A stretch of 64,000 bases of DNA from an uncultured Bacilli bacterium (lineage in GTDB: Bacteria; Bacillota_I; Bacilli_A; RF39; UBA660): positions 152,323 through 216,322 of the forward strand of contig CAJUQG010000001.1 of NCBI GenBank assembly GCA_910588025.1, in the 5' to 3' direction. The notes below the pieces were generated by a model. That model was not told where the DNA came from. It saw nothing but the letters and a program-made list of their open reading frames with translations, and ran no database searches. A program made the translations under genes and the position numbers. How positions within the stretch are numbered: the first letter of the stretch is position 1; every line of letters begins with the position of its first letter. Below, piece after piece: positions 9,249 through 28,218 of this stretch.

Positions 9249-9371
9249 TTATAATATCTTTTTTCTTTCTTTTTGTTGCTCTTCCAATTTTGCAATTCGG
9301 GACGAAATAATACAGCAAGGAACACAAATCAAAAAAACCAAAAATAGCCATCCAAGAATAATCATAGCCAT
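9249..9371 (-). CDS. small membrane peptide (40 aa), hypothetical
   Basis: Below the ORF-track size cutoff. AAGGAGAG SD directly upstream of the ATG at 9371. Translation is MAMIILGWLFLVFLICVPCCIISSRIAKLEEQQKERKKIL: one TM helix plus a charged tail. It lies just downstream of a hairpin that follows vanZ. Confidence 0.45.
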   Translation of the reverse strand: MAMIILGWLFLVFLICVPCCIISSRIAKLEEQQKERKKIL

Positions 9372-9396
9372 CTCTCCTTAACGTAAATACTACAAA

Positions 9397-9414
9397 AAGC
9401 GACGAATATCGCTT
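9397..9414 (-). terminator. weak hairpin after the VanZ-like gene
   Basis: The minus strand reads AAGCGA-tattcg-TCGCTT followed by TTTGTAGTATTT. The stem is 6 bp and the T-tract is short. Confidence 0.3.
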
Positions 9415-9452
9415 AGTAATAATATAGACAATTAAAAAGAAATTATGCCAGT

Positions 9453-11273: not shown

Positions 11274-11363
11274 AAAATATCCTCCTTAATAAAATTATAT
11301 TAACACAATTTCCATTTTTTTTAGAAAAATTAGTAAAGTTCTATCAAAAGAATGTAAACTTTT

Positions 11364-12539
11364 TTAATCCCTATAAAACACATCTCGAGTATAAACTTTT
11401 TGTTCTACCTGTTTTAGCAGTTCTTCCATTCGATTAGCTAAAATGACATCCGCTAAAGATGCAAATTGCGAAAAATCTTGAATAACAGGATAACCCTGAA
11501 ATTCATTTGTTTGCAAAGTAGGTTCATAAATAATAATAGAAATCCCACTTTTTTGTAACTCTTTGATAATATCTTGAATTGCACTAGCTCTAAAATTATC
11601 CGAACCACTTTTCATCGTCAAACGATAAATTCCGACCGTTTGCGGATTTTTTTTAAGTACCATTTTAGCAATATGTTTTTTTCTTGTATCATTCGATTGA
11701 ACGATAGCACGAATTAAATTTTCTGGAATATCTCCATAATTCGCTAACAACTGTTTGGTATCCTTTGGTAAACAATACCCACCATATCCAAAAGAAGGAT
11801 TATTATAATGTCCCCCAATTCGCGTATCCAAAGATACACCATCAATAATATCTTTTGTATTTAATCCCTTTAATTCGGCATAAGTATCTAGTTCGTTAAA
11901 ATAAGCAACTCGTAATGCTAAGTAAGTATTCGCAAATAACTTTACCGCCTCAGCCTCAGTAGAATCCATAAATTTAACCACTACATCCTTTTTTAAAGAT
12001 GCCTCAACTAATAAATCGGCAAATTCCTTTGCTCGTGAAGATTTTTCACCCACAATAATGCGCGATGGATACAAATTATCATACAAAGCATGCCCTTCTC
12101 TTAAAAATTCTGGTGAAAACATAATATGATCGATAGAATATTTCTCTTTCATATTTTTGATAAACCCAACGGGCACAGTTGATTTTACCACTATGGTCGT
12201 ATCAATTCCCATCGAAATTACTTTTTTAATAATATCCTCAACACTAGAAGTATCAAAATAATTCTGTTCATCATCATAATTCGTTGGCGTACTAATAATA
12301 ACAAACTTCGCCCCTAGAAAAGCTTTTTGATAATCAAGCGTTGCCGTAAGATTTAAGTCCTTCGTTTTGAAATAGGTCTCAATTTCTTTATCTTCAATAG
12401 GAGACTTTCTTTGATTAATCATTTCAACTTTTTCTTCTATCACATCAAGTGCTACTACCTCATGTTTTTGACTTAATAAAGTTGCTAAAGATAACCCAAC
12501 ATATCCTGTCCCTGCTACAGCAATTTTCATTTTATTCAT
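11364..12539 (-). CDS. ugd: UDP-glucose 6-dehydrogenase
   Basis: N-terminal Rossmann motif AVAGTGYVGLS. Catalytic block GYGGYCLPKD. 391 aa. Confidence 0.9.
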   Translation of the reverse strand: MNKMKIAVAGTGYVGLSLATLLSQKHEVVALDVIEEKVEMINQRKSPIEDKEIETYFKTKDLNLTATLDYQKAFLGAKFVIISTPTNYDDEQNYFDTSSVEDIIKKVISMGIDTTIVVKSTVPVGFIKNMKEKYSIDHIMFSPEFLREGHALYDNLYPSRIIVGEKSSRAKEFADLLVEASLKKDVVVKFMDSTEAEAVKLFANTYLALRVAYFNELDTYAELKGLNTKDIIDGVSLDTRIGGHYNNPSFGYGGYCLPKDTKQLLANYGDIPENLIRAIVQSNDTRKKHIAKMVLKKNPQTVGIYRLTMKSGSDNFRASAIQDIIKELQKSGISIIIYEPTLQTNEFQGYPVIQDFSQFASLADVILANRMEELLKQVEQKVYTRDVFYRD

Positions 12540-13998
12540 CCTCTCTAATCTCTTTTTTCTTTCTCGTCATTTTCTTTCCAACACCGTTAGTTAACTCAAA
12601 CAAAAACTGATCTTTTAAAACAACTAAAGCTAGAAAATAAACACTACCAGAAACCCCAACTTGGATGACTATTGACCCAAAATGATCAGTTATCAAACTA
12701 CCTACCCAAATACTACAAACAAATAATAAGATAGATGCAATCAAATATTTATAAGTTAATTGAAATACTTCCTTGAAACGAATTTCTTTTCTTACTAAAA
12801 CAAATTGAGTAAAAGTAACAGAAAACTCCGCAATTACAGTTGCAATAGAAGCTCCAATGGAAGCAAAGTTTTTAATAAAAAGAAAATTAAGAACTAAATT
12901 AACAATGGCCCCAATACAAACCGATAAAGTATATTTATTCTGCTGTTTAGTAGGAAGTAAAAATTGAGTACCCATAATATTACTTAAACTAATGAACACA
13001 ATAATCGGACTAATAATACAAATGAGCGGAGCCACTTTATCATATCCCTCCCCATAAAAAAGAGGAACAAATTGATATGCAACACTCATGATGCCAAACA
13101 TCAAAGGAAATGCAATCATCATGATAAACTGAAATGAATGATTCAAATATTTTTTAATTTGTGTATGCTTTCCTTCTGCATAAGTTGCAGCAATCCTTGG
13201 TAACATCACCGTTCCAAAAGAAGTTGCAATCGTAAGTAACAATTTAATCATTTTTTGCGCTTGCTCATAATAACCGACTTCTGCTTTATCGTGAATAATA
13301 GCTCCAATCATTGTTTTATCTAACACTGTATAAATTTGCGTAGCAATTTGGGGAATAAAAAGAATCATCATCGGTTTCATATGTTTCACAAAATTTAATT
13401 CCTTAAACTTTACTCTTTTAATAACTCTAGGTAAATAAATCCACAACGACAAATTTCCCAAAAGATTTGCTAAAACATAAATTAATAAATAGTGATTTAA
13501 ATCATGTTCACTTCTCACAAAAAGAAAGATACAAATCACACTAATGATTTTAACTAACATATTTCGCATTACAGTCTTTTTAAATTCTTCTAACCCTTGA
13601 AAATACCAACTAATATCGATTGCACTAGCTAAAATTTCTAAAGTTAAAATCTTATAATAAATTTGATATTCCAAAGAAGAGCAAAACGTAAAATAAAACA
13701 CCAACATAGAAATCATCAAAGTAAAAAAACGTAACCAAAAAATTTCAAGAAAAGCTTTACTACGTTTTTCTATATTTTCTTGACAATAAGCAATCTCTCT
13801 TTGACCATACAAAGCAACTCCTAAAGAGCCAAACAAAATAAAATAAGTCGTAATAGACAATGTATAACTATATATTCCGATATTTTCTGCTCCAAGTACT
13901 CTTGACAAATATGGAGTAGTAATAAAAGGAATAAGAATTGCTAATATTTGATAAGATAAATGATAAATATAATTTTTCACAATACTTTTCTTTGCCAT
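12532..13998 (-). CDS. Wzx-type oligosaccharide flippase (MOP superfamily)
   Basis: About 14 TM helices and the typical polysaccharide-biosynthesis-protein N-terminus. ATG at 13998 follows an AAAGAGG SD; the track start is an upstream GTG. Confidence 0.8.
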   Translation of the reverse strand: MAKKSIVKNYIYHLSYQILAILIPFITTPYLSRVLGAENIGIYSYTLSITTYFILFGSLGVALYGQREIAYCQENIEKRSKAFLEIFWLRFFTLMISMLVFYFTFCSSLEYQIYYKILTLEILASAIDISWYFQGLEEFKKTVMRNMLVKIISVICIFLFVRSEHDLNHYLLIYVLANLLGNLSLWIYLPRVIKRVKFKELNFVKHMKPMMILFIPQIATQIYTVLDKTMIGAIIHDKAEVGYYEQAQKMIKLLLTIATSFGTVMLPRIAATYAEGKHTQIKKYLNHSFQFIMMIAFPLMFGIMSVAYQFVPLFYGEGYDKVAPLICIISPIIVFISLSNIMGTQFLLPTKQQNKYTLSVCIGAIVNLVLNFLFIKNFASIGASIATVIAEFSVTFTQFVLVRKEIRFKEVFQLTYKYLIASILLFVCSIWVGSLITDHFGSIVIQVGVSGSVYFLALVVLKDQFLFELTNGVGKKMTRKKKEIREDE

Positions 13999-14013
13999 AG
14001 AAACCTCTTTCAC

Positions 14014-15009
14014 TCACACTTTGATCATTTGATTTAATTTAGGAATTTTCGATATTACATAAGACACCAAAAAAGATAGAATAAGTACAATAATGACATG
14101 GATAACTCGCAAATAATTGTTAAGAAAAGGTAAGATTTTACACACAACTCTTAGAATACTATAATGAACGATATAAACACCCATTGTTAAATCAGATAAA
14201 TGTTGGAACAATTTATAATTGCTGACCAATTTACTTATGGAAAGAAAAATCAATATAGATGTAAAAATAATAATTGGGGAATCATAAAATGCTTCACAAT
14301 ACATAGTACCATAATTTTGATACGCAAAAAAGCATTGATACAAAACGGAACACACAATCATAAACAAAGTCAAAGAAAAAAGCTTTTTCTTGTCCAAATT
14401 GCTCACTTTATCATAATTTTTTCTAAGATATCCGCCTAAAAGGAAATACAAAAACCAAGTCCATAAACGAAACGTTTGAATGATATGATTCTTTAAAACA
14501 AATTGATAATTGTGATATAAAATAAGAAATAGAATATCTAAAATAACACACAATACCATCATGAAATACACCCAAAAAGAAAAAGACTGCTGTTGATATA
14601 GTTTTTGAAATAAAGGCAAAAGCAAATCGATTATAAGGATAGATCCTAAAAACCAAAAATGCGGAAAACCACCCTTTTGCAGAAAAGAGGCGAATATTTC
14701 ATAAAAAGGATTAGTAACTGTATCACCAATCACCCATTTCACCAAATATAAAAGACCTCCCCAAAACAGAACGATAATCATAATACGAAAAACTTTTTGA
14801 AAAACGTATCGATATTGATTTACTTTTCCTAATTGCAAATACCCATTTGTCATAAAAAACAAAGGTATAGCAAACACACCAAGATAATAAATCCATAATC
14901 CATTCGTATAAGTATGTTCGGATAACCCAATAGTAATAGAATGTAGAACAACGACCAAAAGACAAGCAATAATTTTTATAAAATCAATCCAAACGATTCT
15001 TTTTTTCAT
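14014..15009 (-). CDS. acyltransferase-3 family membrane O-acyltransferase
   Basis: Begins RIVWIDFIKIIACLLVVVLHS. About 10 TM helices, 331 aa, inside the polysaccharide locus. Confidence 0.75.
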   Translation of the reverse strand: MKKRIVWIDFIKIIACLLVVVLHSITIGLSEHTYTNGLWIYYLGVFAIPLFFMTNGYLQLGKVNQYRYVFQKVFRIMIIVLFWGGLLYLVKWVIGDTVTNPFYEIFASFLQKGGFPHFWFLGSILIIDLLLPLFQKLYQQQSFSFWVYFMMVLCVILDILFLILYHNYQFVLKNHIIQTFRLWTWFLYFLLGGYLRKNYDKVSNLDKKKLFSLTLFMIVCSVLYQCFFAYQNYGTMYCEAFYDSPIIIFTSILIFLSISKLVSNYKLFQHLSDLTMGVYIVHYSILRVVCKILPFLNNYLRVIHVIIVLILSFLVSYVISKIPKLNQMIKV

Positions 15010-16114
15010 TTACTTCCTCTTGATACTTAGAAAATGCTGATTCGATAACATCATCCATATCATAATATTTATATTCTGCTAGTCTTCCTCCAAAAATCAC
15101 ATTAGATTCCTTGGAAGCTAACTCTCGATATTGAAGCGCTAATTGATTATTCTTTTCATCATTAATCGTATAATATTTTTCCATACCTTCCTGATAATCC
15201 GTAGGATACTCAAAAGTTACCACTGTATTAGGACTTTCCGTATCAAATTCAAAATGCTTATGTTCAATAACTCTTGTATAATCTACTTCATGACCTGTAT
15301 AATTTACAACTGCATTACCTTGATAGTTACGTTCTGCCAAGATTTTTGTTTCAAATTTTAAACTTCTCCACTCCAAAACTCCTAAAGAATAATGAAAATA
15401 TTCATCAATGGGGCCAGTATAAACAATCTTCTCAGCAATTTCCTTGTAATAATCGACATTTTTAAAAAAATTAGTATTTAATTGAACATCTATCCCCGAA
15501 AGCATTTGAGCTACCATATTAGTATATCCTCCAACGGGAATACCTTGATACTTATCATTAAAATAATTATTATCATAGACAAATCGCACAGGTAAACGCT
15601 TAATAATAAAAGCAGGTAAATCTTTACAATCACGATTCCATTGCTTTTCTGTATAACCTTTAATTAACTTTTCATAAATAGTTCTTCCGATTAAACTAAT
15701 AGCTTGCTCCTCTAAATTACTAGGAACTTTTCCGTCCATTTCTTTTCGTTCTTCACTAATATGTCGCCAAGCATCTTCAGGAGAATAGACATCATCCCAA
15801 ATTTTAGCAAAAGTATTCATATTAAATGGCAAATTATAAATTTCGTTTCCAATACGCGCAACTGGACTATTGGTATAACGATTAAATTCGGCAAATTGAT
15901 TGACAAAATTCCAAACATTAGAATTATCTGTATGAAAGATATGAGCACCGTATTGATGAACTTGAATACCCTTAATATTTTCCGTATAAATATTACCAGC
16001 AATGTGTTCACGTTTATCAATCACCAAGACTTTTTTTCCATCCTTTTTGGCTAAATGAGCAAAAGTAGCGCCAAATAATCCTGCTCCTACTACTAAATAA
16101 TCATATTGTTTCAT
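14984..16114 (-). CDS. glf: UDP-galactopyranose mutase
   Basis: FAD-binding motif YDYLVVGAGLFG and the typical Glf length. ATG at 16114 is 8 nt after an AGGAGA SD. Confidence 0.9.
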   Translation of the reverse strand: MKQYDYLVVGAGLFGATFAHLAKKDGKKVLVIDKREHIAGNIYTENIKGIQVHQYGAHIFHTDNSNVWNFVNQFAEFNRYTNSPVARIGNEIYNLPFNMNTFAKIWDDVYSPEDAWRHISEERKEMDGKVPSNLEEQAISLIGRTIYEKLIKGYTEKQWNRDCKDLPAFIIKRLPVRFVYDNNYFNDKYQGIPVGGYTNMVAQMLSGIDVQLNTNFFKNVDYYKEIAEKIVYTGPIDEYFHYSLGVLEWRSLKFETKILAERNYQGNAVVNYTGHEVDYTRVIEHKHFEFDTESPNTVVTFEYPTDYQEGMEKYYTINDEKNNQLALQYRELASKESNVIFGGRLAEYKYYDMDDVIESAFSKYQEEVNEKKNRLD

Positions 16115-17354
16115 GTGATTCATCTCCTAAAAAGAAATTTTTTAATTCTTCATTTTTATTACTATAAAGAAGAAAATAATAATCAAACGCTAGAAGTACC
16201 ATCATAATCGAAGTATACTGATAAGCATTCATAAAAATCAAACTAAACTGAACAAGAAATAATTCCAACAAATATAAATTTTTTCCATGCAATAAATATT
16301 TCAAAAAACCTATCACAAAAGGAAACAAATAAAATAAAGCTAAGTAGATTCCGCCTTGTACTAACACGATTACAAGGGAACTAGACAATCCAGTATTATA
16401 ACTTCGAAAATCACTCATAAAGCTTACTGCTAATTCATTATTCATAAAGCCATTACCCATGATTTTGTGTTCCTTCCATGCCAAGTATCCAGCTCGGAAA
16501 TCATCGCTTCGAATATTATAAGAACGAGTTTCTGCTTTATCATAAAAGAGAAATAACCCAATAATTAATACAAAAAAGATAACCATAATCTTTAAAAATC
16601 TTATATTTTTATTCTTATTATAAAAAAGAAACCGATATAAAATTAAAAACAAGGAAATTAACATACCTGTTAAAGATAGAGAAGATATAATAGATAATCC
16701 AAAAACAATAGTATATTTATTAAACATATTTTTCTTATAAAAAAGGGCAAATCCCATTGCTAAAATTAAATGCAATGCAAACATAGGGCCCTCTACAAAA
16801 ATACTAGAATTTCTTAGTAAAACTTGGTCAAAAATAACTGTAGTTTGCGAATCAAAATGCAAATAATGATACCCATATATCGATTGTAACCCTCCCCAAT
16901 CGATATTCAAAGAAACATTTGGTTCTACAAGCTTTAACAAAGATCCTCCAATGTAAAAAACTAAAGAAACAAAAGCGATAACAAACATTACATTAATATA
17001 AGCCTTCAATAAATTTTGTATTTGTTCCTTATCAAAAACCGAAAACATTAAAAACATCAAAGGAAATATGACAAAAAAAGAACTCAAAAAACTCAAACGA
17101 CTATCTTGGACACCTAACAGAAAAAAAATACTAATATATATAAAATAAGCAAGCAAAAATAAAATGGTATTTTTTTTCAATTTTTTATTAAAATTTATAA
17201 TAAAAATTGCCAATAAATCAAGAATAATAAACACAGATAAGAATTTTCCCAAATTACTATCATAAATGTGAGCAAATACACTTCTACTATCAAGAATTAC
17301 GAAAAATACTAATAAATATTGTAAATAGATATTAATTCTATTTTTATGTCTCAT
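16101..17354 (-). CDS. Wzy-type oligosaccharide repeat-unit polymerase (O-antigen ligase-like)
   Basis: 417 aa, highly hydrophobic, 10 or more TM helices with a large loop. It lies between glf and the glycosyltransferases. Confidence 0.65.
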   Translation of the reverse strand: MRHKNRINIYLQYLLVFFVILDSRSVFAHIYDSNLGKFLSVFIILDLLAIFIINFNKKLKKNTILFLLAYFIYISIFFLLGVQDSRLSFLSSFFVIFPLMFLMFSVFDKEQIQNLLKAYINVMFVIAFVSLVFYIGGSLLKLVEPNVSLNIDWGGLQSIYGYHYLHFDSQTTVIFDQVLLRNSSIFVEGPMFALHLILAMGFALFYKKNMFNKYTIVFGLSIISSLSLTGMLISLFLILYRFLFYNKNKNIRFLKIMVIFFVLIIGLFLFYDKAETRSYNIRSDDFRAGYLAWKEHKIMGNGFMNNELAVSFMSDFRSYNTGLSSSLVIVLVQGGIYLALFYLFPFVIGFLKYLLHGKNLYLLELFLVQFSLIFMNAYQYTSIMMVLLAFDYYFLLYSNKNEELKNFFLGDESHETI

Positions 17355-17358
17355 AATG

Positions 17359-18108
17359 TTATATACTCCTTATAAGGATTTTAATCTTTTTCAGAAAATT
17401 AATCAATTTATTTTCTGTAAATAACATAGAATTAACATATTTTACCCGTTTTTGATGTTTTTCTACCCATACATTAATCAAAAACTCAGACATAAATCCA
17501 TAAATTCTTTGTTCCTGTTTTGTATAACCAGTCAAATCAACCATACTTTCATATTTTTCTAATAATTCAAACAACCAACTACAATATGATTGAAAATCTT
17601 CTCGCTTCATGACGGCCATATTACAAAAACTAGCTGAATTACTATGCATTACTTTCTCAAAAGCATCATAGTATTCTGAATATTCTCTTTGAATCAACTT
17701 TTCTAATGCAATTAAATCTTGTTCTCTCCCACTAATACTATTTGCAAAATATCCCCAAACATCTGGTTTTTCTTTCACCTTTTTAGGTAATACAACATCA
17801 TATTGTTTCATCCATTTTTCCATTTGATCTACTCGATATATTTTCGAAAAAAGACCATGAACAAAAAAGCGTCGATAATGACAGATGCCAACATAATCTG
17901 GCAACTCATAATTTTTCCACAACCAATAAATGGCTGTCAACTCACAGTAAAAAGGATTCTTAGAAGCAATATTATCTCCAACCGAATCTGCTAAAATCCG
18001 TCCATGATTTTTCTTTCCATACGAAGATACACCAATTACCTTATAATCATTCGGTACCTTTAAAAATAAATCCTTATGTGTGATTACAAACATTTCTATT
18101 TTTTTCAT
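17359..18108 (-). CDS. DUF4422-family putative glycosyltransferase
   Basis: N-terminus MFVITHKDL...YKVIGV and the block CELTAIYWLWKN...GICHYRRFF, characteristic of DUF4422 proteins in capsule loci. Confidence 0.65.
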   Translation of the reverse strand: MKKIEMFVITHKDLFLKVPNDYKVIGVSSYGKKNHGRILADSVGDNIASKNPFYCELTAIYWLWKNYELPDYVGICHYRRFFVHGLFSKIYRVDQMEKWMKQYDVVLPKKVKEKPDVWGYFANSISGREQDLIALEKLIQREYSEYYDAFEKVMHSNSASFCNMAVMKREDFQSYCSWLFELLEKYESMVDLTGYTKQEQRIYGFMSEFLINVWVEKHQKRVKYVNSMLFTENKLINFLKKIKILIRSI

Positions 18109-18114
18109 AATTCC

Positions 18115-19065
18115 TCACTTCACCAAACTAGTATTAATATCGTAATATTTACTTTTAAAAATTTTTTGCTTTAATTTAATCATCATAGCCAAAATTTGAA
18201 ACAACTTCTTTTTTTGATAATTACTCCACTTTGTTGCATAAATCGTAAACTCTTGTCGTTGAAACAATTCAAACAACAATTCTAATTGCATAATATGTAA
18301 ATCATGATAAGCTGGGCTAGCAATCGTCTTTTTTAAATCATAATTCGACCAAAAGCCTCTATCATATTTTGGTAAAAAACGACAAAGCGTATCAACAGAC
18401 TTCATTAAGATTTCTTGATATTTTTTATCTTCCGAAATTAAAGTAAAATCATATAAACCAAAAAGAGAAAAAATCCAGCCATTTAATACCGATAAATTAT
18501 GAGAAGAAACATATTCTTGAAAAATAACATCTTCTTGCTGATAAAGAGTCGTTCCCCCATTTTCAATATCTCGAAGCATAAAATCGAGCGCTAATTTAGC
18601 TTTCTCTAAAAATTGCCTTTCCTGCGTTTCAACATAAGCCCGTAACAAAACAGATACCCCTTCACTCTGACACATAGAAGATTGCGTAAAATGTGCTTGA
18701 TCATGTAAAGTTGCCATACAATTCCACATACCTTGTTCATCAAGATGGCTAATAGCCCACTTCGCGATATTCAAAAATTGACTCAATCGTTTCTTATCAT
18801 GAGTTTCTAAATATAAATCATACAACCCCAAACCATATTGAAAAATAGTAATAGGAAAATAAGCTTCAATTCCTGCAATAGTAGTATTAATAGGAATTCC
18901 CTGAGAATCTAATATCGTAGAATCACATACTTTATTGGTTAAATCGTTATAATATCCTTTGACACTCTGTTTCGAATAATATTTTCCAATTCCTTGCTTA
19001 ACATGAAAGGCACTTTTCCCACAAAGCATTCGAAACCAACGTTTTAATAACTTAAATATCTTCAT
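18115..19065 (-). CDS. D-glucuronyl C5-epimerase-like protein (GLCE C-terminal domain family)
   Basis: Conserved blocks SSMCQSEGVSVLLRAYVET, QEYVSSHNLSVLNGWIFSLFGLYDF, LPKYDRGFWSNYDL, AYHDLHIMQLELL and KWSNYQK. These match my recollection of the C-terminal blocks of animal GLCE. Confidence 0.7.
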   Translation of the reverse strand: MKIFKLLKRWFRMLCGKSAFHVKQGIGKYYSKQSVKGYYNDLTNKVCDSTILDSQGIPINTTIAGIEAYFPITIFQYGLGLYDLYLETHDKKRLSQFLNIAKWAISHLDEQGMWNCMATLHDQAHFTQSSMCQSEGVSVLLRAYVETQERQFLEKAKLALDFMLRDIENGGTTLYQQEDVIFQEYVSSHNLSVLNGWIFSLFGLYDFTLISEDKKYQEILMKSVDTLCRFLPKYDRGFWSNYDLKKTIASPAYHDLHIMQLELLFELFQRQEFTIYATKWSNYQKKKLFQILAMMIKLKQKIFKSKYYDINTSLVK

Positions 19066-19066
19066 G

Positions 19067-20083
19067 CTACTCCTCCGTAAGTTCCTTTTTAAAATCTTTT
19101 AATAACTCATCGATATCATATTTTTTAGATAGCTTCAAAGATTCTAACTTATATTCTTGCAAATGACCTTCTCTTATGAGCTCTATGGCTTTTTTATACA
19201 TATCTTCATAATTCTGATATTCAAAAATTTTACCATTTTGATTATCTAAAATATATTCGTGCGCATATTTCCAGTTAGAAGCTAAAACTGCCAGTCCAGC
19301 TATATAAGCATCAATTAAAGCTCCTGGTAAACATTCTCCTTTATATTCCGTTGGAAAAATAAAAATATCATATTGCGATAATATTTCATATTCATCTTTC
19401 CCATTTGGATTAATAACACCATGATATCGGATATTTTGATGAAAAGCTTTTTTGATTTCATTCAAATAATCTTCTTTCACTTGACCATAAATATCTAAAC
19501 TACATTCAATGTTCTCATGATTTAATCGTTCTACCAAAGAAATTGCTTCTTCTACGCCTTTTTCTTTAATCACGCGACCAAAATACACAAATCGCGTCTT
19601 TTTACTCTCTTGATACTTACTATGATAAGGTTCTATTTTTCGAAAATTATTTAAAACTTCAACATTATGAATATTTAGTTCATTCAAATCTTGCTTAAGC
19701 GTTTCGGCTTCCACATAAATACATTTTAAAGCCTGATAATCCTTCACATTCCATTGTTTTTGCTGAATATTTCTAGATAAAGAGCCACCTATCACAAAAT
19801 AATAAATCTTTTTCTTCGTCCGAATTTTTCGAAAAAAATTTAAAACAATATGTGCTCCTCTATCCGCTGAAGAAACAATAATATCATCACATTGAAAATA
19901 ATTGACCAGAATGAGAAATATTAATTTAAAAATATGCTTTTGCCAATGATCAGTATCTACAGATATCAATTGAATATTAGAAAGACCACAAAAATATTCT
20001 TTCAACAAACGACACTTAATCGTCTCACCATCAATTCGATTTCGAGAATCAGCAGTAGTAGCTATATACAAAACTTTTTTCAC
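19067..20083 (-). CDS. GT-B fold glycosyltransferase (family 4/1-like)
   Basis: C-terminal EX7E-type region FPTEYKGECLPGALIDAYIAGLAVLASN. 338 aa. Confidence 0.75.
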   Translation of the reverse strand: MKKVLYIATTADSRNRIDGETIKCRLLKEYFCGLSNIQLISVDTDHWQKHIFKLIFLILVNYFQCDDIIVSSADRGAHIVLNFFRKIRTKKKIYYFVIGGSLSRNIQQKQWNVKDYQALKCIYVEAETLKQDLNELNIHNVEVLNNFRKIEPYHSKYQESKKTRFVYFGRVIKEKGVEEAISLVERLNHENIECSLDIYGQVKEDYLNEIKKAFHQNIRYHGVINPNGKDEYEILSQYDIFIFPTEYKGECLPGALIDAYIAGLAVLASNWKYAHEYILDNQNGKIFEYQNYEDMYKKAIELIREGHLQEYKLESLKLSKKYDIDELLKDFKKELTEE

Positions 20084-20090
20084 GCTTCAC

Positions 20091-20924
20091 CTACTTCTTA
20101 TGATATATTCTTTTTTTCACAGCATGAAAAGCATAACCAACAAAACAATAACATGCTTTCCATAAAGGCAATTTTTCAATTTTACGATACCAATACCAAT
20201 TCATTTTAACCGCTTTCAATTTATTACTAGAAAGAGAATTCTTAACAACCCGGTAATAAGACAACGTTTCTGGAACTTCATAGCAATCATAGCCATTTTT
20301 TAATAATTGACACCAAGTGGCAGCATCTTGTCTTCTTCGAATATTTGGCATAACTAATAATTCTTTACCCGTAATTTGTGTATCCACCATCACACAAACC
20401 GTTTGAATAATGGTATTTCTCAAAAAGAGATTATAATTAACGCGAGCCGGAATTTTAACGATCTTTCCAAGACTATTACCCGCTTCATCTAATTTTTCAT
20501 AATCAGTACAAGTAAAAGCATAATGATGTTCTAACATGTACTTTACTTGCTTTTCTAGCTTTTCTTTTTTCCATAAATCATCTGCATCTAAATAAGCCAC
20601 AAAACGTCCCTTAGATTCTTCTAACGCTTTATTTCTTGCTACTGCCGCACCACTATTTTTTTCTAATTTAAAATACTTAACTCTAGAATCATTTTTCACA
20701 AATGATTGAATGACTTCTGCTGATGAATCCGTAGAACAATCATCTACCAAAAGTAATTCCCAATTTTGATAGGTTTGTGCTTGCACACATTGAATCGTTT
20801 CTGCAATTAATTTCTCACAATTATAGATAGGCGTAATAATAGAAACCAAGTTTACTCTACAATCTACTTCTCCACCTTTTAAATTTGCACCTTCATTTAC
20901 TACATCCTTCATTTTACTTTTCAT
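20091..20924 (-). CDS. family 2 glycosyltransferase
   Basis: VSIITPIYNCEKL...LLLVDDCSTDSS...YLDADD. ATG at 20924 is 7 nt after a GAGGTG SD; the track start is an upstream TTG. Confidence 0.85.
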   Translation of the reverse strand: MKSKMKDVVNEGANLKGGEVDCRVNLVSIITPIYNCEKLIAETIQCVQAQTYQNWELLLVDDCSTDSSAEVIQSFVKNDSRVKYFKLEKNSGAAVARNKALEESKGRFVAYLDADDLWKKEKLEKQVKYMLEHHYAFTCTDYEKLDEAGNSLGKIVKIPARVNYNLFLRNTIIQTVCVMVDTQITGKELLVMPNIRRRQDAATWCQLLKNGYDCYEVPETLSYYRVVKNSLSSNKLKAVKMNWYWYRKIEKLPLWKACYCFVGYAFHAVKKRIYHKK

Positions 20925-20996
20925 TACTTCACACCTCAATTCGACTCATAGTCTACTATACCTATAATATAGAAAAAAGAGCAATACGTCAAATTA

Positions 20997-21704
20997 TTAT
21001 ACTGCTCCATCTCTTTTTATAACTTTAACAATTGTAGAAAAAATAATCTTAATATCTAACCAAATAGAACAATGACCAACGTAATATAGTTCAAGTTGCT
21101 TTCTTTTTTTATAAGTAGTACAGCTTCTTCCATTCACTGCCCAATATCCAGTAAGCCCAGGTCTTAAACTCAAAAACTTCTTCGCTTCTGCACTATTATA
21201 ATTTTCAATTTCATCAGGAACAATTGGTCTTGGTCCAATCAAAGACATATCCCCTTTAAAAATATTGATAAATTGTGGAAATTCATCAAGGGAAGTCACG
21301 CGTAATAGTTTCCCTATTTTTGTAATTCTTGGATCATTTTCTAATTTTCGTGTTTGATAATACTCTTCACGAATATCTTCATTTTCCTCTAACCAACGCT
21401 TTAAAACATCTTCAGCATTAGGAACCATCGTTCTAAATTTATAAATATAAATAAATTGACCATATTTTCCCAAACGTTTTTGTTTAAAAAAGATAGAATG
21501 AAAATCACCACTACAAATCGTAATAATTTTTACGAATAAAGCAAGCGGAATCAAAAATAAAATACCGATGAATCCTACAAAAACATCAAAAGTCCTTTTA
21601 AAGACAAAATATAAATATCGAAAAGATACACTTTTACTACGTGTTTCTTCATATACTAACTCTTTATTATTCACAATCAAACCCCTCCAAACATACTTAT
21701 TCAT
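20997..21704 (-). CDS. undecaprenyl-phosphate sugar phosphotransferase (bacterial sugar transferase, WbaP/CpsE C-terminal type)
   Basis: One TM helix, then KRLGKYGQFIYIYKFRTM...LDEFPQFINIFKGDMSLIGPRP. It is the first gene of the locus. Confidence 0.88.
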   Translation of the reverse strand: MNKYVWRGLIVNNKELVYEETRSKSVSFRYLYFVFKRTFDVFVGFIGILFLIPLALFVKIITICSGDFHSIFFKQKRLGKYGQFIYIYKFRTMVPNAEDVLKRWLEENEDIREEYYQTRKLENDPRITKIGKLLRVTSLDEFPQFINIFKGDMSLIGPRPIVPDEIENYNSAEAKKFLSLRPGLTGYWAVNGRSCTTYKKRKQLELYYVGHCSIWLDIKIIFSTIVKVIKRDGAV

Positions 21705-21888: not shown

Positions 21889-23919
21889 TTAAGAAATATC
21901 ACAATGCGTATAACCTACACCACCATGTATCATTTCTTGTAACACAACCTCCAAGCCTTTCTTAGGAATTTCCTTTAGTAAAAAGACATGCCCCCCATTA
22001 CATAATTCATGTAATTTGCCTTCCAATACAATTCGTTCTTCCAAACTTACTTTCCGATTCACTAAAAAAGTACTTCCATATTGACCATGGTTTTCGAAAC
22101 CTTTTAATTTACCATATATGACCTCATCAAGTTCTAAAAAATACGTTCCAACATCATCCAAATCCATAGCACATAAAGCAAAATTTAAATTATTTTCTTC
22201 TGAATAACGATCTAACACCTTTCTTATATATGTAACAATTTTAATCGCTTCTTCTTGAGCAAGTGTTTCATTCTCTCTTTTTCCAAGTAAAAGAAAGACT
22301 GTTTCCCAAAGTCCAACAAAATTAACTTGCAATACACCATGTTTAAAAATTTTCCGCAATCGGTCATTTTCTTTCACATTTTCTCCAAATTTCCAAACTC
22401 CCTTACCGATTAAATACGGAAAGTTATAATTATGTTTACTACATTGATACTCAAAACGTTCCAAAATTTCATTTTTCGCAAGTTCTAAAGTTTCTAAAAG
22501 TTCTTCATAAAAATGCTCTACATCTTCATGCTGATGCCTTAGAGCAAGACGTGGTAAATTAATGCTTGTAAAAGACACACTGCCCTTTTCTCCAACATAA
22601 ACACCATCTTGAGTTGTATTATCAAAAAAAGCTCGCTCGCCCCCTACCCCATAACATACATCTTCTTTGCTCTGATTGTATGAAACATCTAAAAATTCAA
22701 AATCTACAACCCCTTTAAAATATGCTTCTTCCGCTAACTTACGTACGTCACTCATCGCTTTATTATGAGAAAAATGCAAACACTCCTTTAACTTAAAAAT
22801 ACCAATTACTGCATCAGGATTTTGAAGTACTAATTCTTGGATGAAAACCTTATCAATCATAATGGCTGCCATACTTTGTTCTGTTCCAAAAGAGAAAGAA
22901 ACTTTTTGATGATTAAAATTTTGTTCATAAGAAAACTGTAATTCTCCTAAAAACCAATGAAGTGCTTTTTGTAAATTATGTTGTAGGGTCTCCAAACTTT
23001 CTCGGTAAGAATCCAAAAATAGCGTACGAATCGGATGAGAACTTTGATAAAAATACCGATAATCTTCCTCATTAATTTCTAAAGAAGAAAGTTCACTTAC
23101 CTTTTGACGAAATAAATCCATTGGCAAAATTTCTTGCAAACCAAAGGAAGACAATTTTAACTCCAAAGTCTCTTGCCATATCAAACCAAAATGACGAATT
23201 AAAATAGGTTCTAATTCCTTTTCAAAATAAGGTACCATGACATTCCCGTGTTGCTCTAACATAATACTACGAATCACTTTTGATAAAGACAATAACGCAT
23301 CAAAAACGTGATTCTGGGCTGACTCTTCTAAAAACTTAGAATAAAGAAGTTGAACACTACTTGGATTTCCCATTGCATAATATCCTAATTGATGAAAATA
23401 TAAAATTCCACTATCAATAGTTCGAACGGTTTTATGATCTAACAAAAAACTTTGTGCAAACTCTTCACTAATCACTTTCCCAAAATGATAAAACATATCC
23501 TGCGGTGGCAAAGAAGAACCAACCAACTTGGGATCCTCTTTTTCATTCAGCCCTAACTTCTCCATTGATTTCAAAAACTTATGTTGTTCTTTTTTGGTAA
23601 ATGATTCACGTGATAAAGCCCTTTGTTCACGGTATTTTCGATAATGATTATAAATATCTAGATATTGATGATTTTCTAAAACCTCTAAAATAATATCTTG
23701 AATATCCTCTATTTTTATTGTTTTTCGATCTTGATAATCCTTCGCGATTTTTGCTAAAACCGAACTATAAACACGATTCATATCTTTATTTTCATAAGCA
23801 TGTGTAACACTATCAAAGGCTTTTTTGATTGCAATCGCTATTTTTTCACCTTGAAATTCACAACGTTGTCCACTTCTCTTTACAACGATTAAACTGTCAA
23901 GTACATCATTTTTTTGCAT
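21889..23919 (-). CDS. ATP-cone protein homologous to class III ribonucleotide reductase NrdD but lacking the Zn-ribbon and glycyl-radical C-terminus
   Basis: N-terminal ATP-cone (VVKRSGQRCEFQGEKIAIAIKKAF). Collinear blocks with the neighbouring NrdD (FTSINLPRL, CNGGHVFLL). It ends at GGVGYTHCDIS with no CxxC or RVxG[FY] motif. Confidence 0.7.
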   Translation of the reverse strand: MQKNDVLDSLIVVKRSGQRCEFQGEKIAIAIKKAFDSVTHAYENKDMNRVYSSVLAKIAKDYQDRKTIKIEDIQDIILEVLENHQYLDIYNHYRKYREQRALSRESFTKKEQHKFLKSMEKLGLNEKEDPKLVGSSLPPQDMFYHFGKVISEEFAQSFLLDHKTVRTIDSGILYFHQLGYYAMGNPSSVQLLYSKFLEESAQNHVFDALLSLSKVIRSIMLEQHGNVMVPYFEKELEPILIRHFGLIWQETLELKLSSFGLQEILPMDLFRQKVSELSSLEINEEDYRYFYQSSHPIRTLFLDSYRESLETLQHNLQKALHWFLGELQFSYEQNFNHQKVSFSFGTEQSMAAIMIDKVFIQELVLQNPDAVIGIFKLKECLHFSHNKAMSDVRKLAEEAYFKGVVDFEFLDVSYNQSKEDVCYGVGGERAFFDNTTQDGVYVGEKGSVSFTSINLPRLALRHQHEDVEHFYEELLETLELAKNEILERFEYQCSKHNYNFPYLIGKGVWKFGENVKENDRLRKIFKHGVLQVNFVGLWETVFLLLGKRENETLAQEEAIKIVTYIRKVLDRYSEENNLNFALCAMDLDDVGTYFLELDEVIYGKLKGFENHGQYGSTFLVNRKVSLEERIVLEGKLHELCNGGHVFLLKEIPKKGLEVVLQEMIHGGVGYTHCDIS

Positions 23920-23946
23920 GTTTTCACCAACCTAAATCTTAATCAT

Positions 23947-23975
23947 ATTATAGAAGAAATTCACGATAAAATCAA
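23947..23975 (-). promoter_or_regulatory. candidate sigmaA-type promoter of the NrdD-like gene
   Basis: The minus strand reads TTGATT, a 17-nt spacer, then TATAAT. This is followed by an AGGTTGGTGA SD and the ATG at 23919. Confidence 0.5.
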
Positions 23976-24197
23976 CAAATTATTAAAAGAACATAAAAGT
24001 CAAGTCTTTTTGTCAAAAAAATATTTTTTATAAAAAAACATAAAATAAATTTTAAAGCAAAAATTATTTTTTTCTCCATTTTAAAAGAAAATTCAAACTT
24101 ATAACCCCCAAAATAACAAAATGTTTTTTTTGCCATTTTTTTCTTTTTGACAAGAAAATTATAACTTTACACAGAAAAAAATATTTAAAAATTAATG

Positions 24198-24227
24198 TTG
24201 CATTTTTAAAAAACTTCATAGTATAAT
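24198..24227 (+). promoter_or_regulatory. candidate sigmaA-type promoter of nrdDG
   Basis: TTGCAT, an 18-nt spacer, then TATAAT. The -10 box overlaps the ATG listed in the ORF track (24226), which argues for the downstream start at 24265. Confidence 0.5.
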
Positions 24228-24264: not shown

Positions 24265-26358
24265 ATGATAAAGTCTATCATTAAAAGAAATGGCAAAAAA
24301 CAAGATTTTGATGCAAAGAAAATTGAAGTTGCCATTCAAAAAGCTTTAATAGCAACCAACAAAGAAATTTCCAAAGAAGAAAGTGAACATAAAAGTCAAA
24401 TTATAACAAACAACGTTCTTTTAATATTAGAAGATTTAAACCGAGATACAGTATGTATAGAAGATGTACAAGACGCTGTCGAAAATGCTTTAATGAATAG
24501 TGGTTTAAACAATGTAGCCAAGAATTATATTCGCTATCGTTATCAAAGAGAAATATTAAGAAACGATAATCTTTCTAGTAAAGCTGTCGAAAAAATGGTA
24601 CTTACCTATACCGGCGGCGATGATATGGCCGTAAAAGAAAATTCCAATATGGGCTTCTCTTTACAAGGTTTAAATAACTTTTTAGTATCAGAATTCAGTA
24701 AAAACTTCTGGCTAAATCATATCTTTACTCCCGAACAAAAGAAAGCTCACGAAAATGGTGACATTCACATTCATGATTTAGGGCTTTTATCTGTTTACTG
24801 TTGTGGATGGGACTTAGAACAATTGCTAATCAAAGGATTTACTGGAGTAAAAAATAAAATTCAAAGTAAACCTCCAAAACATTTCCGAAGCGCTCTAGGT
24901 CAAGTTGTAAACTTTATCTATACTCTTCAAGGAGAAGCAGCTGGTGCTCAAGCTCTATCTAGTTTCGATACTTACTTAGCTCCTTTCATTCGTTATGATA
25001 ATTTAACATATAAAGAGGTAAAACAAGCAATGCAAGAATTTATCTTTAACATGGCTGTACCAACCAGAGTTGGTTTTCAAACTCCATTCTTTAACATTAC
25101 TCTAGATTTAGAAGTAAGTTCTTTATTCAAAGATAAACACATCATAATTGGTGGCGAATACAAAGAAGAAACCTATGGTGAATTTCAAGAAGAAATGGAT
25201 TTATTAAACAAAGCTTTCTGTGAAGTAATGACAGAAGGAGATGCGAGTGGCCGTGTATTCACATTCCCTATCCCTACTTACAATATCGGAAAAGACTTTA
25301 ATTGGGATCGTCCAATTGTAGATGATGTTATGAAAATGACAAGCAAATATGGAATTCCTTATTTTGCTAACTTTGTAAATAGTGATATGAATCCTGAAGA
25401 TGCTAGAAGTATGTGCTGTCGTCTTAGAATCGATAATCGCGTGTTAAGAAAACGTGGTGGTGGCTTATTTGGTGCTAACCCTATGACTGGAAGTATCGGT
25501 GTAACAACCATCAACCTTCCACGCTTAGGTTATTTATACAAAGATAAAACTGAACTAAAAAAACAATTACGAATTTTAATGGATTTGTGTCGCGATATCT
25601 TAAGTACTAAACGTAAATTTTTAGAAAAAAATACCGAAGGCGGACTTTACCCATATAGCAAATTTTATCTTGCTGACATTAAAGAACGTTTCGGAGAATA
25701 TTGGAAAAACCATTTCAATACGATTGGTATTGTTGGAATGAACGAATGTATTAGAAACTTTACTAACGATTCTGAAAATATAACTACACGTTATGGGCAA
25801 GAATTTGCCAAAGACATTCTAGATTATATGAACGAAGTCTTAACAGAATATCAAGAAAATGGCGACCTTTACAACTTAGAAGCAACTCCAGCCGAAGGAA
25901 CAGCACCACGTCTTGCTAAAATAGACAAAAACACTTACAAAGATATTATTACTGCTGGAGAAAAAGAAGCATGCTATACCAATAGTACTCAATTACCAGT
26001 TAATGCGACCGACGATTTATTTGAAGCCATCGAATTACAAGATGAACTACAATGTAAATATACAGGTGGAACTGTTCTTCATGCTTTCTTAGGAGAAAGA
26101 ATTCATGATCCGAAAGTTACCAAAACTTTACTACAAAATATTTTTGCCAATTATAAATTACCATATTTATCATTTACCCCTACTTTCAGTATTTGTAAAG
26201 AACATGGTTATTTAGATGGCGAACAATTTACTTGTCCGCATTGTGGTGGAGATTGTGAAGTATGGACAAGAGTGGTAGGATTCTATCGTCCAGTTCAAAA
26301 CTTTAATAATTCAAAACGAGAAGAATTCCATCAAAGAAAAGAATATATAGTAGAATGA
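24265..26358 (+). CDS. nrdD: anaerobic ribonucleoside-triphosphate reductase (class III)
   Basis: ATP-cone at the N-terminus (IIKRNGKKQDFDAKKIEVAIQKAL). Thiyl-Cys block SMCCRLR. C-terminal Zn-ribbon CPHCGGDCEVW and glycyl-radical motif TRVVGFYRP. AAAGGA SD before the ATG at 24265. Confidence 0.92.
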   Translation: MIKSIIKRNGKKQDFDAKKIEVAIQKALIATNKEISKEESEHKSQIITNNVLLILEDLNRDTVCIEDVQDAVENALMNSGLNNVAKNYIRYRYQREILRNDNLSSKAVEKMVLTYTGGDDMAVKENSNMGFSLQGLNNFLVSEFSKNFWLNHIFTPEQKKAHENGDIHIHDLGLLSVYCCGWDLEQLLIKGFTGVKNKIQSKPPKHFRSALGQVVNFIYTLQGEAAGAQALSSFDTYLAPFIRYDNLTYKEVKQAMQEFIFNMAVPTRVGFQTPFFNITLDLEVSSLFKDKHIIIGGEYKEETYGEFQEEMDLLNKAFCEVMTEGDASGRVFTFPIPTYNIGKDFNWDRPIVDDVMKMTSKYGIPYFANFVNSDMNPEDARSMCCRLRIDNRVLRKRGGGLFGANPMTGSIGVTTINLPRLGYLYKDKTELKKQLRILMDLCRDILSTKRKFLEKNTEGGLYPYSKFYLADIKERFGEYWKNHFNTIGIVGMNECIRNFTNDSENITTRYGQEFAKDILDYMNEVLTEYQENGDLYNLEATPAEGTAPRLAKIDKNTYKDIITAGEKEACYTNSTQLPVNATDDLFEAIELQDELQCKYTGGTVLHAFLGERIHDPKVTKTLLQNIFANYKLPYLSFTPTFSICKEHGYLDGEQFTCPHCGGDCEVWTRVVGFYRPVQNFNNSKREEFHQRKEYIVE

Positions 26359-27017
26359 TTTATGGAATTCAAAAACTATCTTTAGTGGATTACCCATCTT
26401 TACCGAGCTTTGTGATTTTTCTAGGAGGGTGTAACTTTCGTTGCCCCTTCTGCCACAATAGTTCGATTGTCAATAAAACTGAAACGACTTACGAAATCAA
26501 TGACGTCTTACTAGAAATTCAAAAAAGAAGTGCCTTTTTAAATGCTGTAGTCATAACTGGTGGAGAACCCACTTTATATGGTGAAAAATTAATTGAATTA
26601 TTAAAACAAATTAAAAAACTCCATTTACAAATTAAATTAGATACCAACGGAACCAATCCCAAACTTTTAAAAAAGATTTTGGACTTAAATTTAGTTGATT
26701 ACATTGCTATGGATATCAAAAACACTTGGGAAAAATATGAAGAAACAGTAGGATGCCCAGTAGATTTAGATAAAATAAAACAAAGCATAGAAATCATTGA
26801 AACTAGCAAAAAAGATTACGAATTTCGCATGACCATTAATAAAACAATGCACACGAAAGAAGATATTTTAAGTGTCCAAAATTATGTGAAAGAAAAAAAA
26901 CGTTTTTTCCTCCAACCTTACAAACAACAACCTACTCAAATAATCAAACAAGATTTTGGTGAATGGACAAAAGAAGAATTACAAGAACTAGAAGAAGCTT
27001 TTTCTATCAAAGCTTAA
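26355..27017 (+). CDS. nrdG: anaerobic ribonucleotide reductase activating protein (radical SAM)
   Basis: CNFRCPFCHN cluster motif and GGEPTL. Its start overlaps the nrdD stop (ATGA). Confidence 0.9.
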   Translation: MIYGIQKLSLVDYPSLPSFVIFLGGCNFRCPFCHNSSIVNKTETTYEINDVLLEIQKRSAFLNAVVITGGEPTLYGEKLIELLKQIKKLHLQIKLDTNGTNPKLLKKILDLNLVDYIAMDIKNTWEKYEETVGCPVDLDKIKQSIEIIETSKKDYEFRMTINKTMHTKEDILSVQNYVKEKKRFFLQPYKQQPTQIIKQDFGEWTKEELQELEEAFSIKA

Positions 27018-28154: not shown

Positions 28155-28167
28155 CTCACAAAAGAAA

Positions 28168-28190
28168 AAAAGAAGTATTACAACCTTCTT
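28168..28190. terminator. weak AT-rich bidirectional hairpin between convergent genes
   Basis: AAAGAAG, a 9-nt loop, then CTTCTTT. The minus-strand reading is followed by TTTTCTTTTG. Confidence 0.3.
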
Positions 28191-28218
28191 TCTAAAGAAT
28201 TTGGGTTCACTTCTTTAA

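Follow-up and report, generated by a model that had tools for sequence, protein, structure and literature searches.

An NrdD paralog without catalytic residues and with a conserved ATP-cone, a candidate nucleotide sensor in uncultured gut Bacilli

In the genome of an uncultured Bacilli bacterium (RF39; UBA660; assembly GCA_910588025.1), a 64-kb stretch of contig CAJUQG010000001.1 (positions 152,323-216,322 of the forward strand), which we refer to as the window, encodes a genuine class III ribonucleotide reductase (RNR), NrdD, its activase NrdG and, on the opposite strand, a second NrdD-like protein of 676 amino acids (aa), which is the subject of this work. Judged by the motifs that it has lost, this paralog cannot be a ribonucleotide reductase, and judged by its pattern of substitutions and its intact relatives, it is a maintained gene under purifying selection and not a decaying one. 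We propose, with a probability of about one half, that it is a non-catalytic sensor of ATP and dATP, which would act on proteins of the anaerobic RNR module (NrdD and/or NrdG) and modulate them by self- or hetero-oligomerization driven by its ATP-cone. Below, the paralog and its homologs of the same architecture are called the pseudo group, as opposed to the catalytic relatives.

Loss of the catalytic apparatus in a conserved protein family

A first-pass annotation of the window had described the open reading frame (ORF) of the paralog as an intact frame of 676 aa, which opens with an ATP-cone and is collinear with the bona fide NrdD. The ORF list (minus strand) and Pfam agree with this description: residues 11-101 match the ATP-cone family at 51.4 bits (gathering cutoff 25.8), and residues 140-647 match the NRDD family over profile positions 10-474 of 562, with about 88 C-terminal positions missing. 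The neighboring NrdD covers the full NRDD profile (1-562), scores 1017 bits with NCBIfam PRK08270 and contains CCRLR, CPHCGG..C and TRVVGFYRP. BLASTP aligns the two proteins at 24-26% identity in collinear blocks, and recovers both pairs that had been quoted (SVSFTSINLPRLAL with SIGVTTINLPRLG, and LHELCNGGHVFLL with LQCKYTGGTVLHAFL). The possibility that the paralog is a diverged copy of its neighbor was rejected: the neighbor is of the PRK08270 type, and the paralog, by its profile scores, is a descendant of the PRK07111-type lineage of NrdD. PRK07111 gives its best NCBIfam score, 264.6 bits, which is a third of the cutoff of 764 (TIGR02487: 148.9 against 326), and it falls under the cutoff of every NCBIfam NrdD equivalog model. 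In a neighbor-joining (NJ) tree with a Prevotella copri-like sequence as outgroup, all 98 pseudo sequences group only with seven PRK07111-type catalytic sequences; this tree does not separate a single origin of the pseudo group from several, and a midpoint-rooted NJ tree was uninformative, its distances being saturated.

The catalytic features of class III RNRs were defined on the cryo-electron microscopy structures of P. copri NrdD (PcNrdD; PMC11226230). They comprise the thiyl-radical Cys416 at the tip of the finger loop, the second radical Cys171 on the first barrel strand, the NxN flap over the substrate (Asn114/Asn116), the HxHD motif and the TPAE(G) loop with Glu581, which bind the triphosphate, the specificity-site β-hairpin 178-204 at the dimer interface, and the glycyl-radical domain, which begins at residue 676, past the last barrel strand (PMC11226230). 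The comparison was made in an alignment of fused and split catalytic relatives (A1), then in A1 extended by 144 further representative sequences, and 44 catalytic relatives were contrasted with 98 pseudo members.

The thiyl-radical Cys, invariant in the 44 catalytic relatives and missing in the 98 pseudo members, corresponds to G426 of the paralog (YGVGGER against MGCRTR). The whole finger-loop motif M-G-C-R-T is invariant in the catalytic group, while none of its residues is found in the pseudo group, where the R after the Cys is replaced by Gly427; the position equivalent to Asn435, occupied by Asn in catalytic relatives, is S447. The Cys of the first strand (GTTTC, 100% Cys in the catalytic group) is S188. 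The two flap Asn residues reach 98% conservation in the catalytic group and are both missing from the pseudo group, ENANVDG being aligned with a gap and V133. HIHD has become Y174-F175-H176-Q177, and the TPAEG loop has become MDLDD, with D588 at the position of Glu581. The specificity-site hairpin (FKNGFSTGHGFLR in catalytic relatives) carries a 9-residue deletion in the paralog's clade (FLEES---------AQNHV against FKNGFSTGHGFLRTPNSI), and its conserved G/F/T/G/R are gone in the pseudo group. Altogether the pseudo group has lost 57 positions at which the 44 catalytic relatives show at least 90% conservation, including the flap Asn, M-G-C-x-T, P-A-E and the Zn-binding Cys.

The paralog stops directly past the last barrel strand, where NrdD goes on into the Zn-ribbon and the glycyl-radical domain; after the last BLASTP block 23 residues remain in the paralog and 80 in NrdD, so that the earlier estimate of a protein ending about 50 residues early was fair. 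There is no R-x-x-G-Y/F motif in its tail (compared with 120, then 144 homologs), no CxxC in its last 120 residues, and the three Zn-Cys columns that were checked are gaps. A glycyl-radical motif is likewise absent from all frames of the 184 bp downstream and no mini-ORF there carries one, so that the window offers no downstream mini-ORF from which the domain could be provided in trans, the way it is in the split NrdDs described below. The first-pass annotation had derived the loss of class III chemistry from the missing glycyl-radical site, and had noted that the Cys-Cys pair of NrdD is not in register. The first conclusion is reinforced by the additional loss of the radical Cys pair, NxN, HxHD, TPAEG and part of the hairpin; the second is correct and even understated, as the thiyl Cys aligns with G426; and the glycyl-radical motif had not been misplaced, since none exists in the alignments with homologs.

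The AlphaFold2 model of the paralog has a mean predicted local distance difference test (pLDDT) score of 79.6 and a predicted TM-score (pTM) of 0.73, with low pLDDT at residues 433-443 in the finger loop. Its top Foldseek matches are the P. copri NrdD structures 8p2c, 8p28 and 8p23 (E 1e-27 to 1e-30), and matches to NrdD structures from P. copri, S. thermophilus and phage T4 range from E 1e-30 to 1e-18 (1e-30 to 1e-19 for 8p2c, 8p28 and 1h79), with TM-scores of 0.66-0.82, the upper value being target-normalized. In a profile search of solved structures 8p23 was matched at E 1e-96. The model thus points to a retained ten-stranded α/β barrel of the RNR/glycyl-radical enzyme fold, which would serve as a scaffold.

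Homologs of the same architecture fall into two tiers, one of 674-680 aa with 65-99% identity and another of 665-715 aa with 33-39% identity, and both lack the same catalytic elements as the paralog. A profile built from 20 pseudo proteins and searched against 1.84 billion cluster representatives (clusters at 50% identity) gave 4754 matches; among the best 150 of these, about 98 match end to end (580-715 aligned residues) and are without the catalytic Cys, the Zn-ribbon or the Gly, with lengths of up to 758 aa. Among 80 species-representative genomes, 43 loci are of the pseudo type and 37 of the catalytic PRK07111 type. The hosts are nearly all uncultured gut Bacilli, 'Mollicutes' or 'Tenericutes', known as genomes assembled from metagenomes of mouse, rabbit, goat, chicken and human. 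No domain fusions were seen in 10 outliers in length or motifs, apart from the NrdG-type domains of one cluster representative (P0231, see below); the paralog matches no PADLOC defense model (0 families at E <= 0.01), and among PHROGs it matches NrdD-like families only. Two proteins of the family bear the public name of (anaerobic) ribonucleoside-triphosphate reductase, one that of hypothetical protein, and most are unnamed. We found no description of an NrdD paralog devoid of the glycyl radical in the searchable literature, recent phylogenetic and structural papers on RNRs included, and the family is apparently large and undescribed.

Substitution rates speak for maintenance of the gene. Between the paralog and three orthologs, the ratio of nonsynonymous to synonymous substitution rates (dN/dS) is 0.12-0.25 for the entire gene, 0.09-0.18 in the cone and linker and 0.13-0.28 from residue 126 to the end, values that are approximate, as dS is about 1 and near saturation. 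For the same genome pair dN/dS is 0.124 for the paralog versus 0.025 for the neighboring NrdD, i.e. the paralog evolves about five times faster. In 43 species-level loci the pseudo ORF is uninterrupted. The view of a maintained rather than decaying gene, put forward in the first-pass annotation, is therefore upheld by purifying selection and by relatives (43 loci, about 98 clusters) that are intact and not frameshifted.

The ATP-cone and the nrd neighborhood

The ATP-cone of P. copri NrdD binds two nucleotides, and Lys7 and Arg8 of its basic roof, Tyr83, the aromatic residue at the outer nucleotide, and Arg87 and Arg91 of its last helix contact ATP or dATP (PMC11226230). In a profile alignment to 8p23, these residues correspond to K14, R15, Y96, R100 and R104; every one of these cone contacts, which are those that were compared, is invariant across 20 pseudo members. 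By these conserved residues the cone of the paralog is of the two-nucleotide type, the binding itself being predicted. Invariant in the same 20 proteins are also F107, K110, Q112, H113, K114, F115, L116, K117, E120, L122 and G123 of the connector that follows the cone.

The paralog shares with NrdD (closest subtype PRK07111, closest structure P. copri 8P23/8P28) the cone contact residues, the connector helix, the barrel and the place beside nrdG, while it is without the glycyl-radical domain, the Zn-ribbon, both radical Cys, NxN, HxHD and TPAEG, and its hairpin is degenerate. The two differ also in where the constraint lies, namely on the cone in the paralog and on the barrel in the enzyme. 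Mean pairwise identity among pseudo members (n=98) is 53% in the cone, 48% in the linker and 22-32% in the barrel, as compared with 35%, 22% and 49-56%, respectively, among catalytic relatives (n=44). Of the 32 conserved positions specific to the pseudo group 28 lie within residues 13-120, and the other four, K245, G427, K482 and K523, in the barrel. On these identities, constraint is moved to the ATP-cone and linker, inverted relative to the catalytic enzymes. The barrel residues that are invariant in the pseudo group comprise G345-T346, K376, N415, Y423, G427, R429, D433, GxKG 443-446, N454, DRLRK 519-523, KHG 526-528, NLN 577-579 and GGH 642-644. The mean net charge is -1.2 in the pseudo group versus -8.2 in the catalytic relatives.

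Of the 42 informative species loci, 40 (95%) have a gene for NrdD and/or NrdG next to the pseudo gene, divergently in 25 and co-directionally in 15; in L042 and L067 the pseudo gene lacks any nrd neighbor over about 4 kb to either side. Downstream neighbors vary among loci and the nrd linkage is constant. The partner NrdDs belong to four types, i.e. PRK08270-type, E. coli-like, redoxin-fused and PRK07111-type, and the gene orders to five arrangements (A to E in the table). In the operon of arrangement D that was checked (L088), the pseudo gene and nrdG are joined by an overlapping TGATG stop/start. In arrangement E (L058) the tandem of the pseudo gene, a fused catalytic PRK07111-type nrdD and nrdG stands under one promoter, and is likely, from its gene order, a snapshot of the ancestral duplication behind the pseudo family.

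The gene had also been credited with its own promoter, TTGATT-17-TATAAT. This is present (23975..23947, minus strand), but the pattern alone is not above chance in the AT-rich window (13 found against 14.1 expected), and its support comes from conservation across loci and not from the pattern scan: TTGAT(T/A)-17-TATAAT stands at the matching place in the window, L004, L007, L009 and L011, whose proteins are 33-80% identical, and TATAAT is invariant in an alignment of four of these loci (window, L004, L007, L009). No terminator was predicted in the promoter/terminator scan of the window.

The intergenic region shared by the pseudo gene and nrdD contains, in the six loci examined first, an A7CAT element (AAAAAAACAT) and, 88-91 bp on, an ATGT7 element (ATGTTTTTTT), L004 having GTGTTTTTTT. 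The pair is unique in the window (0 expected), and nearly all divergent loci have it with conserved spacing; the elements recur in the nrd promoter regions of L004-L012 and of most of L013-L092. Read in each gene's own sense, ATGT7 stands about 56-68 bp upstream of its -35 box. In unidirectional operons (those of split catalytic nrdD, arrangement D and L058), ATGT7 and A7CAT lie at about -133 and -66 from the start codon in the order ATGT7-N57-A7CAT, with ATGT7 about 67 bp upstream of the -35 box (TTTACA/TTGCAT), which A7CAT abuts; a weaker A-tract lies 13 bp upstream. We take A7CAT next to the -35 box to resemble a proximal UP-element (AAAAAARNR). Since the elements also occur upstream of split catalytic nrdD operons without a nearby pseudo gene, and are missing at both pseudo genes without nrd neighbors, they track nrd operons, and the possibility of a motif specific to the pseudo gene was rejected. 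By this distribution, what the elements mark is nrd promoters, not the paralog, and their presence in the shared region shows the paralog, as far as such predicted sites can, to sit inside the nrd regulatory unit. The motif pair was also rejected as an independent locator of nrd loci, as chance matches in AT-rich DNA dominate: a metagenome scan for AAAAAAACAT-N76-84-ATGTTTTTTT returned two pseudo/nrdD loci among the first 120 matches listed (of at least 120).

The NrdR box ACACWATATATWGTGT has no match with up to three mismatches in the window, where neither NrdR nor a second ATP-cone protein was found. A scan of the whole window with Rfam revealed no RNA family at gathering thresholds, and therefore no riboswitch in the region between the paralog and nrdD.

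Possible functions of the paralog

Binding of ATP and dATP to the cone of class III RNRs shifts the pairing of cones, the dimer-tetramer state and the position of the flap (PMC11226230; PMC12662201). The cone of a catalytic NrdD reads the ATP/dATP ratio and transmits it by moving the flap over the enzyme's own active site and by cone pairing or oligomerization. Because the flap, the active site and the glycyl-radical domain are lost from the paralog, the only output left to its cone would be a nucleotide-dependent change of association, and such a change could in turn modulate NrdD and/or NrdG, the presumed targets. The suggestion of a dATP/ATP-sensing regulator or accessory subunit, made in the first-pass annotation, is a possible reading that fits the invariant cone, the constraint shifted to the cone and the near-obligate nrd linkage. 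Several points weigh against it. We infer nucleotide binding, oligomerization and contact with NrdD or NrdG alike from sequence, and all the sequences come from metagenome-assembled genomes, with dS near saturation. The NrdDs encoded beside the pseudo genes carry apparently intact ATP-cones themselves, which leaves little obvious need for a second sensor. The four partner subtypes, together with two kinds of NrdG, argue against a tightly co-evolved interface, and in two loci no nrd gene is found close to the pseudo gene.

A bolder proposal, which we regard as tentative, is that the family represents an unrecognized class of RNR regulators derived from a dead RNR, in which a cone on an inert scaffold would switch the reductase via hetero-oligomers with NrdD or NrdG, or would act on A7CAT/ATGT7 as a substitute for NrdR in organisms that may lack it. 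Such a class would have arisen by tandem duplication of a PRK07111-type nrdD, an arrangement that L058 retains, and would have outlived the replacement of its partner by at least three other types of NrdD.

It is unlikely that the paralog is a transcriptional regulator analogous to NrdR, whose cone would sense dATP/ATP and which would act on the shared nrd promoter, regulating both itself and nrdDG. NrdR resembles the paralog in being non-catalytic, in having the ATP-cone as a conserved module and in its genetic tie to RNR genes; its cone works through nucleotide-dependent oligomerization, and it sets a precedent for an ATP-cone that steers DNA binding in this way. The placement of the pseudo gene is classic for a regulator, divergent in 25 loci and co-directional upstream of nrdG/nrdD or of catalytic nrdD in 15, with elements at fixed distances from both promoters and no NrdR box in the window; besides, independence from four types of partner would be easier for a regulator that acts on DNA, and the pseudo group is less acidic than its catalytic relatives. 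However, NrdR is a protein of about 150 aa with an N-terminal DNA-binding Zn-ribbon, whereas the paralog has no Zn-ribbon and carries a dead barrel of 550 aa. No DNA-binding domain was found in 11 members scanned (the paralog and 10 outliers from the best matches), which have only the ATP-cone and NRDD, except for P0231. The occurrence of the elements at split nrdD operons without a pseudo gene and their lack at the two nrd-less pseudo genes also speak against such a regulator, and A7CAT, which abuts the -35 box in the manner of an UP-element, may be no operator.

Quite unlikely is an obligate structural role as one half of a heterodimer with catalytic NrdD, in which the paralog would be a permanently inactive monomer bound via the barrel dimer interface. 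A precedent is provided by yeast Rnr4 (class I β-prime), an inactive small-subunit paralog that forms a heterodimer with its close paralog Rnr2; it is likewise a pseudoenzyme derived from an RNR that has lost its radical-generating residues, and is kept because it serves the active enzyme. Rnr4, however, is a paralog of the small (β) subunit, while the protein described here derives from the large subunit and belongs to another subtype than its neighbor. In the P. copri NrdD dimer one monomer is active at a time (PMC11226230), and a heterodimer would exploit this half-of-sites behavior of class III RNRs; the tight linkage to nrdD and the barrel fold kept under purifying selection (dN/dS 0.13-0.28 from residue 126 on) would agree with it. 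On the other hand, identity to the neighbor is only about 24-26%, the subtypes differ, four different types of NrdD serve as partners, the specificity hairpin at the dimer interface is degenerate (with 9 residues deleted in the paralog's clade), and conservation within the protein is lowest in the barrel.

We also find it improbable that the paralog has acquired a function unrelated to RNR control, such as that of a non-radical enzyme or of a nucleotide-binding or storage protein built on the old barrel. Several barrel residues stay invariant and two loci are without nrd neighbors, as such a function would allow, but the barrel holds only 4 of the 32 pseudo-specific positions, with no new motif standing out, every known nucleotide-binding motif of the active site is lost, 95% of the informative loci are linked to nrdD/nrdG, and no defense-system model is matched. 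Finally, a non-functional relic, decaying slowly after a foreign nrdDG cassette took over, would account for the loss of all catalytic features and for the roughly fivefold faster evolution relative to the neighboring NrdD, but is close to refuted by the 2-kb ORF, intact here and in 43 species-level loci, by about 98 clusters (50% identity) of the same architecture, by dN/dS well under 1 in every region, by a cone more conserved than in catalytic relatives, and by retention of the gene in gut lineages whose genomes are probably small.

Neighboring genes, variant reductases and implications

The features of the window and the arrangements of pseudo genes with nrd genes are collected in the table.

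Table. Features of the window (positions counted from its first letter) and arrangements of pseudo and nrd genes in the loci compared
Feature	Location	Strand	Basis
Catalytically dead NrdD paralog, complete ORF, 676 aa + stop, ATG start	21889..23919	-	ORF list
ATP-cone, residues 11-101	23617..23889	-	Pfam PF03477, 51.4 bits
Connector helix (F..K.QHKFLK..E.LG) that follows the cone, residues 102-125	23545..23616	-	invariant residues
Degenerate NrdD α/β barrel, residues 140-647, without catalytic/substrate-binding motifs	21979..23502	-	Pfam NRDD
Finger-loop remnant, residues 421-447	22579..22659	-	alignments with homologs
C-terminal end, residues 648-676 (...IGYTHCDIS) + stop	21889..21978	-	tail comparison, 120 then 144 homologs
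Promoter-like TTGATT-17-TATAAT of the paralog	23947..23975	-	pattern scan and cross-locus comparison
Shine-Dalgarno-like AGGTTGGTGA of the paralog	23924-23933	-	sequence inspection
AAAAAAACAT element (minus-strand reading ATGTTTTTTT), about 56 bp upstream of the -35 box of the paralog	24032..24041	+	
ATGTTTTTTT element, 68 bp upstream of the -35 box of nrdD (TTGCAT, 24198-24203)	24121..24130	+	
Genuine catalytic nrdD, 697 aa from ATG 24265 (start in ORF list 24226)	24265..26358	+	
nrdG activase	26355..27017	+	TIGR02495 NrdG2, 212.6 bits (cutoff 131)
Arrangement A: pseudo gene divergent from PRK08270-type nrdD-nrdG	window, L004, L007, L012, L014, L015		
Arrangement B: pseudo gene divergent from E. 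coli-like nrdD (729-777-aa reading frames), then nrdG	including L009, L011		
Arrangement C: pseudo gene divergent from nrdG-nrdD			
Arrangement D: operon pseudo gene, nrdG, redoxin-fused nrdD	including L088		
Arrangement E: tandem pseudo gene, fused catalytic PRK07111-type nrdD, nrdG	L058 1911-3953, 3953-6322, 6326-6880		

The nrdD start given in the ORF list, ATG 24226, lies within the -10 box TATAAT (24222-24227) of a TTGCAT-18-TATAAT promoter, while ATG 24265 (MIKSIIKRNG, 697 aa) has AAAGGA ahead. Because of the position of the former inside the -10 box and because orthologous NrdDs have 697 aa, the true start is most likely ATG 24265. The gap between the two genes is then 345 bp, as had been annotated for the NrdD on the other strand, and 306 bp if counted from ATG 24226.

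Directly downstream of the paralog and co-directional with it lies a long cluster of the polysaccharide type (5589-21704, minus strand), with genes for a Bac_transf sugar transferase (20997-21704), glycosyltransferases and a Wzy-like polymerase. The counterpart of this cluster in L004 has other gene content, and in the more distant L007, L009 and L011 the genes downstream have no relation to polysaccharide synthesis; because of the latter, the cluster is not considered functionally linked to the paralog. In arrangement B, dut follows nrdG in both annotated loci (L009 and L011), and the nrdD copy of L009 ends in RMNGYL. In L004, a relative with 80% identity, a thymidine kinase gene between those for a penicillin-binding protein and a metallophosphoesterase is present as two ORFs (3135-3344, 69 aa, and 3357-3770, 137 aa), a break that may stem from a frameshift or from faulty assembly; at the matching place, 28155-28218, a thymidine kinase gene is missing from the window.

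Several variants of catalytic NrdD were encountered among the relatives. The partner NrdDs of arrangements C and D (reading frames of 779-802 aa, stop to stop) carry a C-terminal thioredoxin/glutaredoxin-like extension (...GVKQAPTLVVIKNGE...), which suggests a thiol-dependent class III RNR; in L088 the fused gene (6646-8994) is followed by an ORF for a TrxB-like FAD-reductase (8939-9877), and the fusion is found also in L038, L065 and L073-L092.

A split NrdD was found in 32 of the 35 scorable species loci of the catalytic PRK07111 type, with fused genes in three, and three further loci left unscored. Its core of 757-770 aa (about 765) keeps the Zn-ribbon and both Cys, and ends in a Cys-rich tail before the glycyl-radical loop; a glycyl-radical peptide of 50-67 aa (about 53) with FERIRRITGYLVG is encoded 13-36 nt downstream, and nrdG is next. 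In L001 the core occupies 5001-7298 and the peptide, with its own Shine-Dalgarno sequence, 7311-7469; other examples include L002, L003, L016 and L024-L056. Split NrdDs share with the paralog the PRK07111-type lineage, a large protein that ends before the glycyl-radical loop and the promoter architecture, but the split cores keep the Zn-ribbon, both Cys, NxN, HxHD and TPAEG and have a peptide gene, whereas the paralog has none of these. No description of a split NrdD was found in the searchable literature. Conceptually, it is similar to GrcA/YfiD, which serves pyruvate formate-lyase.

P0231 (904 aa) combines an ATP-cone and a complete NRDD domain with C-terminal radical-SAM/Fer4_12 domains, and represents an NrdD-NrdG fusion; at two Cys positions it has unusual residues in the alignment, possibly due to misalignment. 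Finally, P0179, P0192, P0199, P0202 and P0212-P0252, catalytic relatives of 900-1440 aa, match the profile in 2-4 separated stretches, which is consistent with inteins or other insertions in nrdD.

The allostery that RNRs exert through the ATP-cone has long been studied, whereas cone signaling in class III has been resolved structurally only since about 2023. The pseudo family is a natural experiment, in which the cone and connector persist, with even higher conservation than in the enzymes, and the catalytic machinery that they normally control has been deleted. The separate glycyl-radical peptide of about 53 aa in split NrdDs is of interest for glycyl-radical enzymology. Metabolic reconstructions that count each protein with an NRDD domain as a reductase could over-count functional NrdD. 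Identifying what the paralog's cone acts on would reveal an output of the ATP-cone that is independent of the enzyme's own active site, and could bring to light a new level at which anaerobic dNTP synthesis is controlled in abundant uncultured gut Bacilli.

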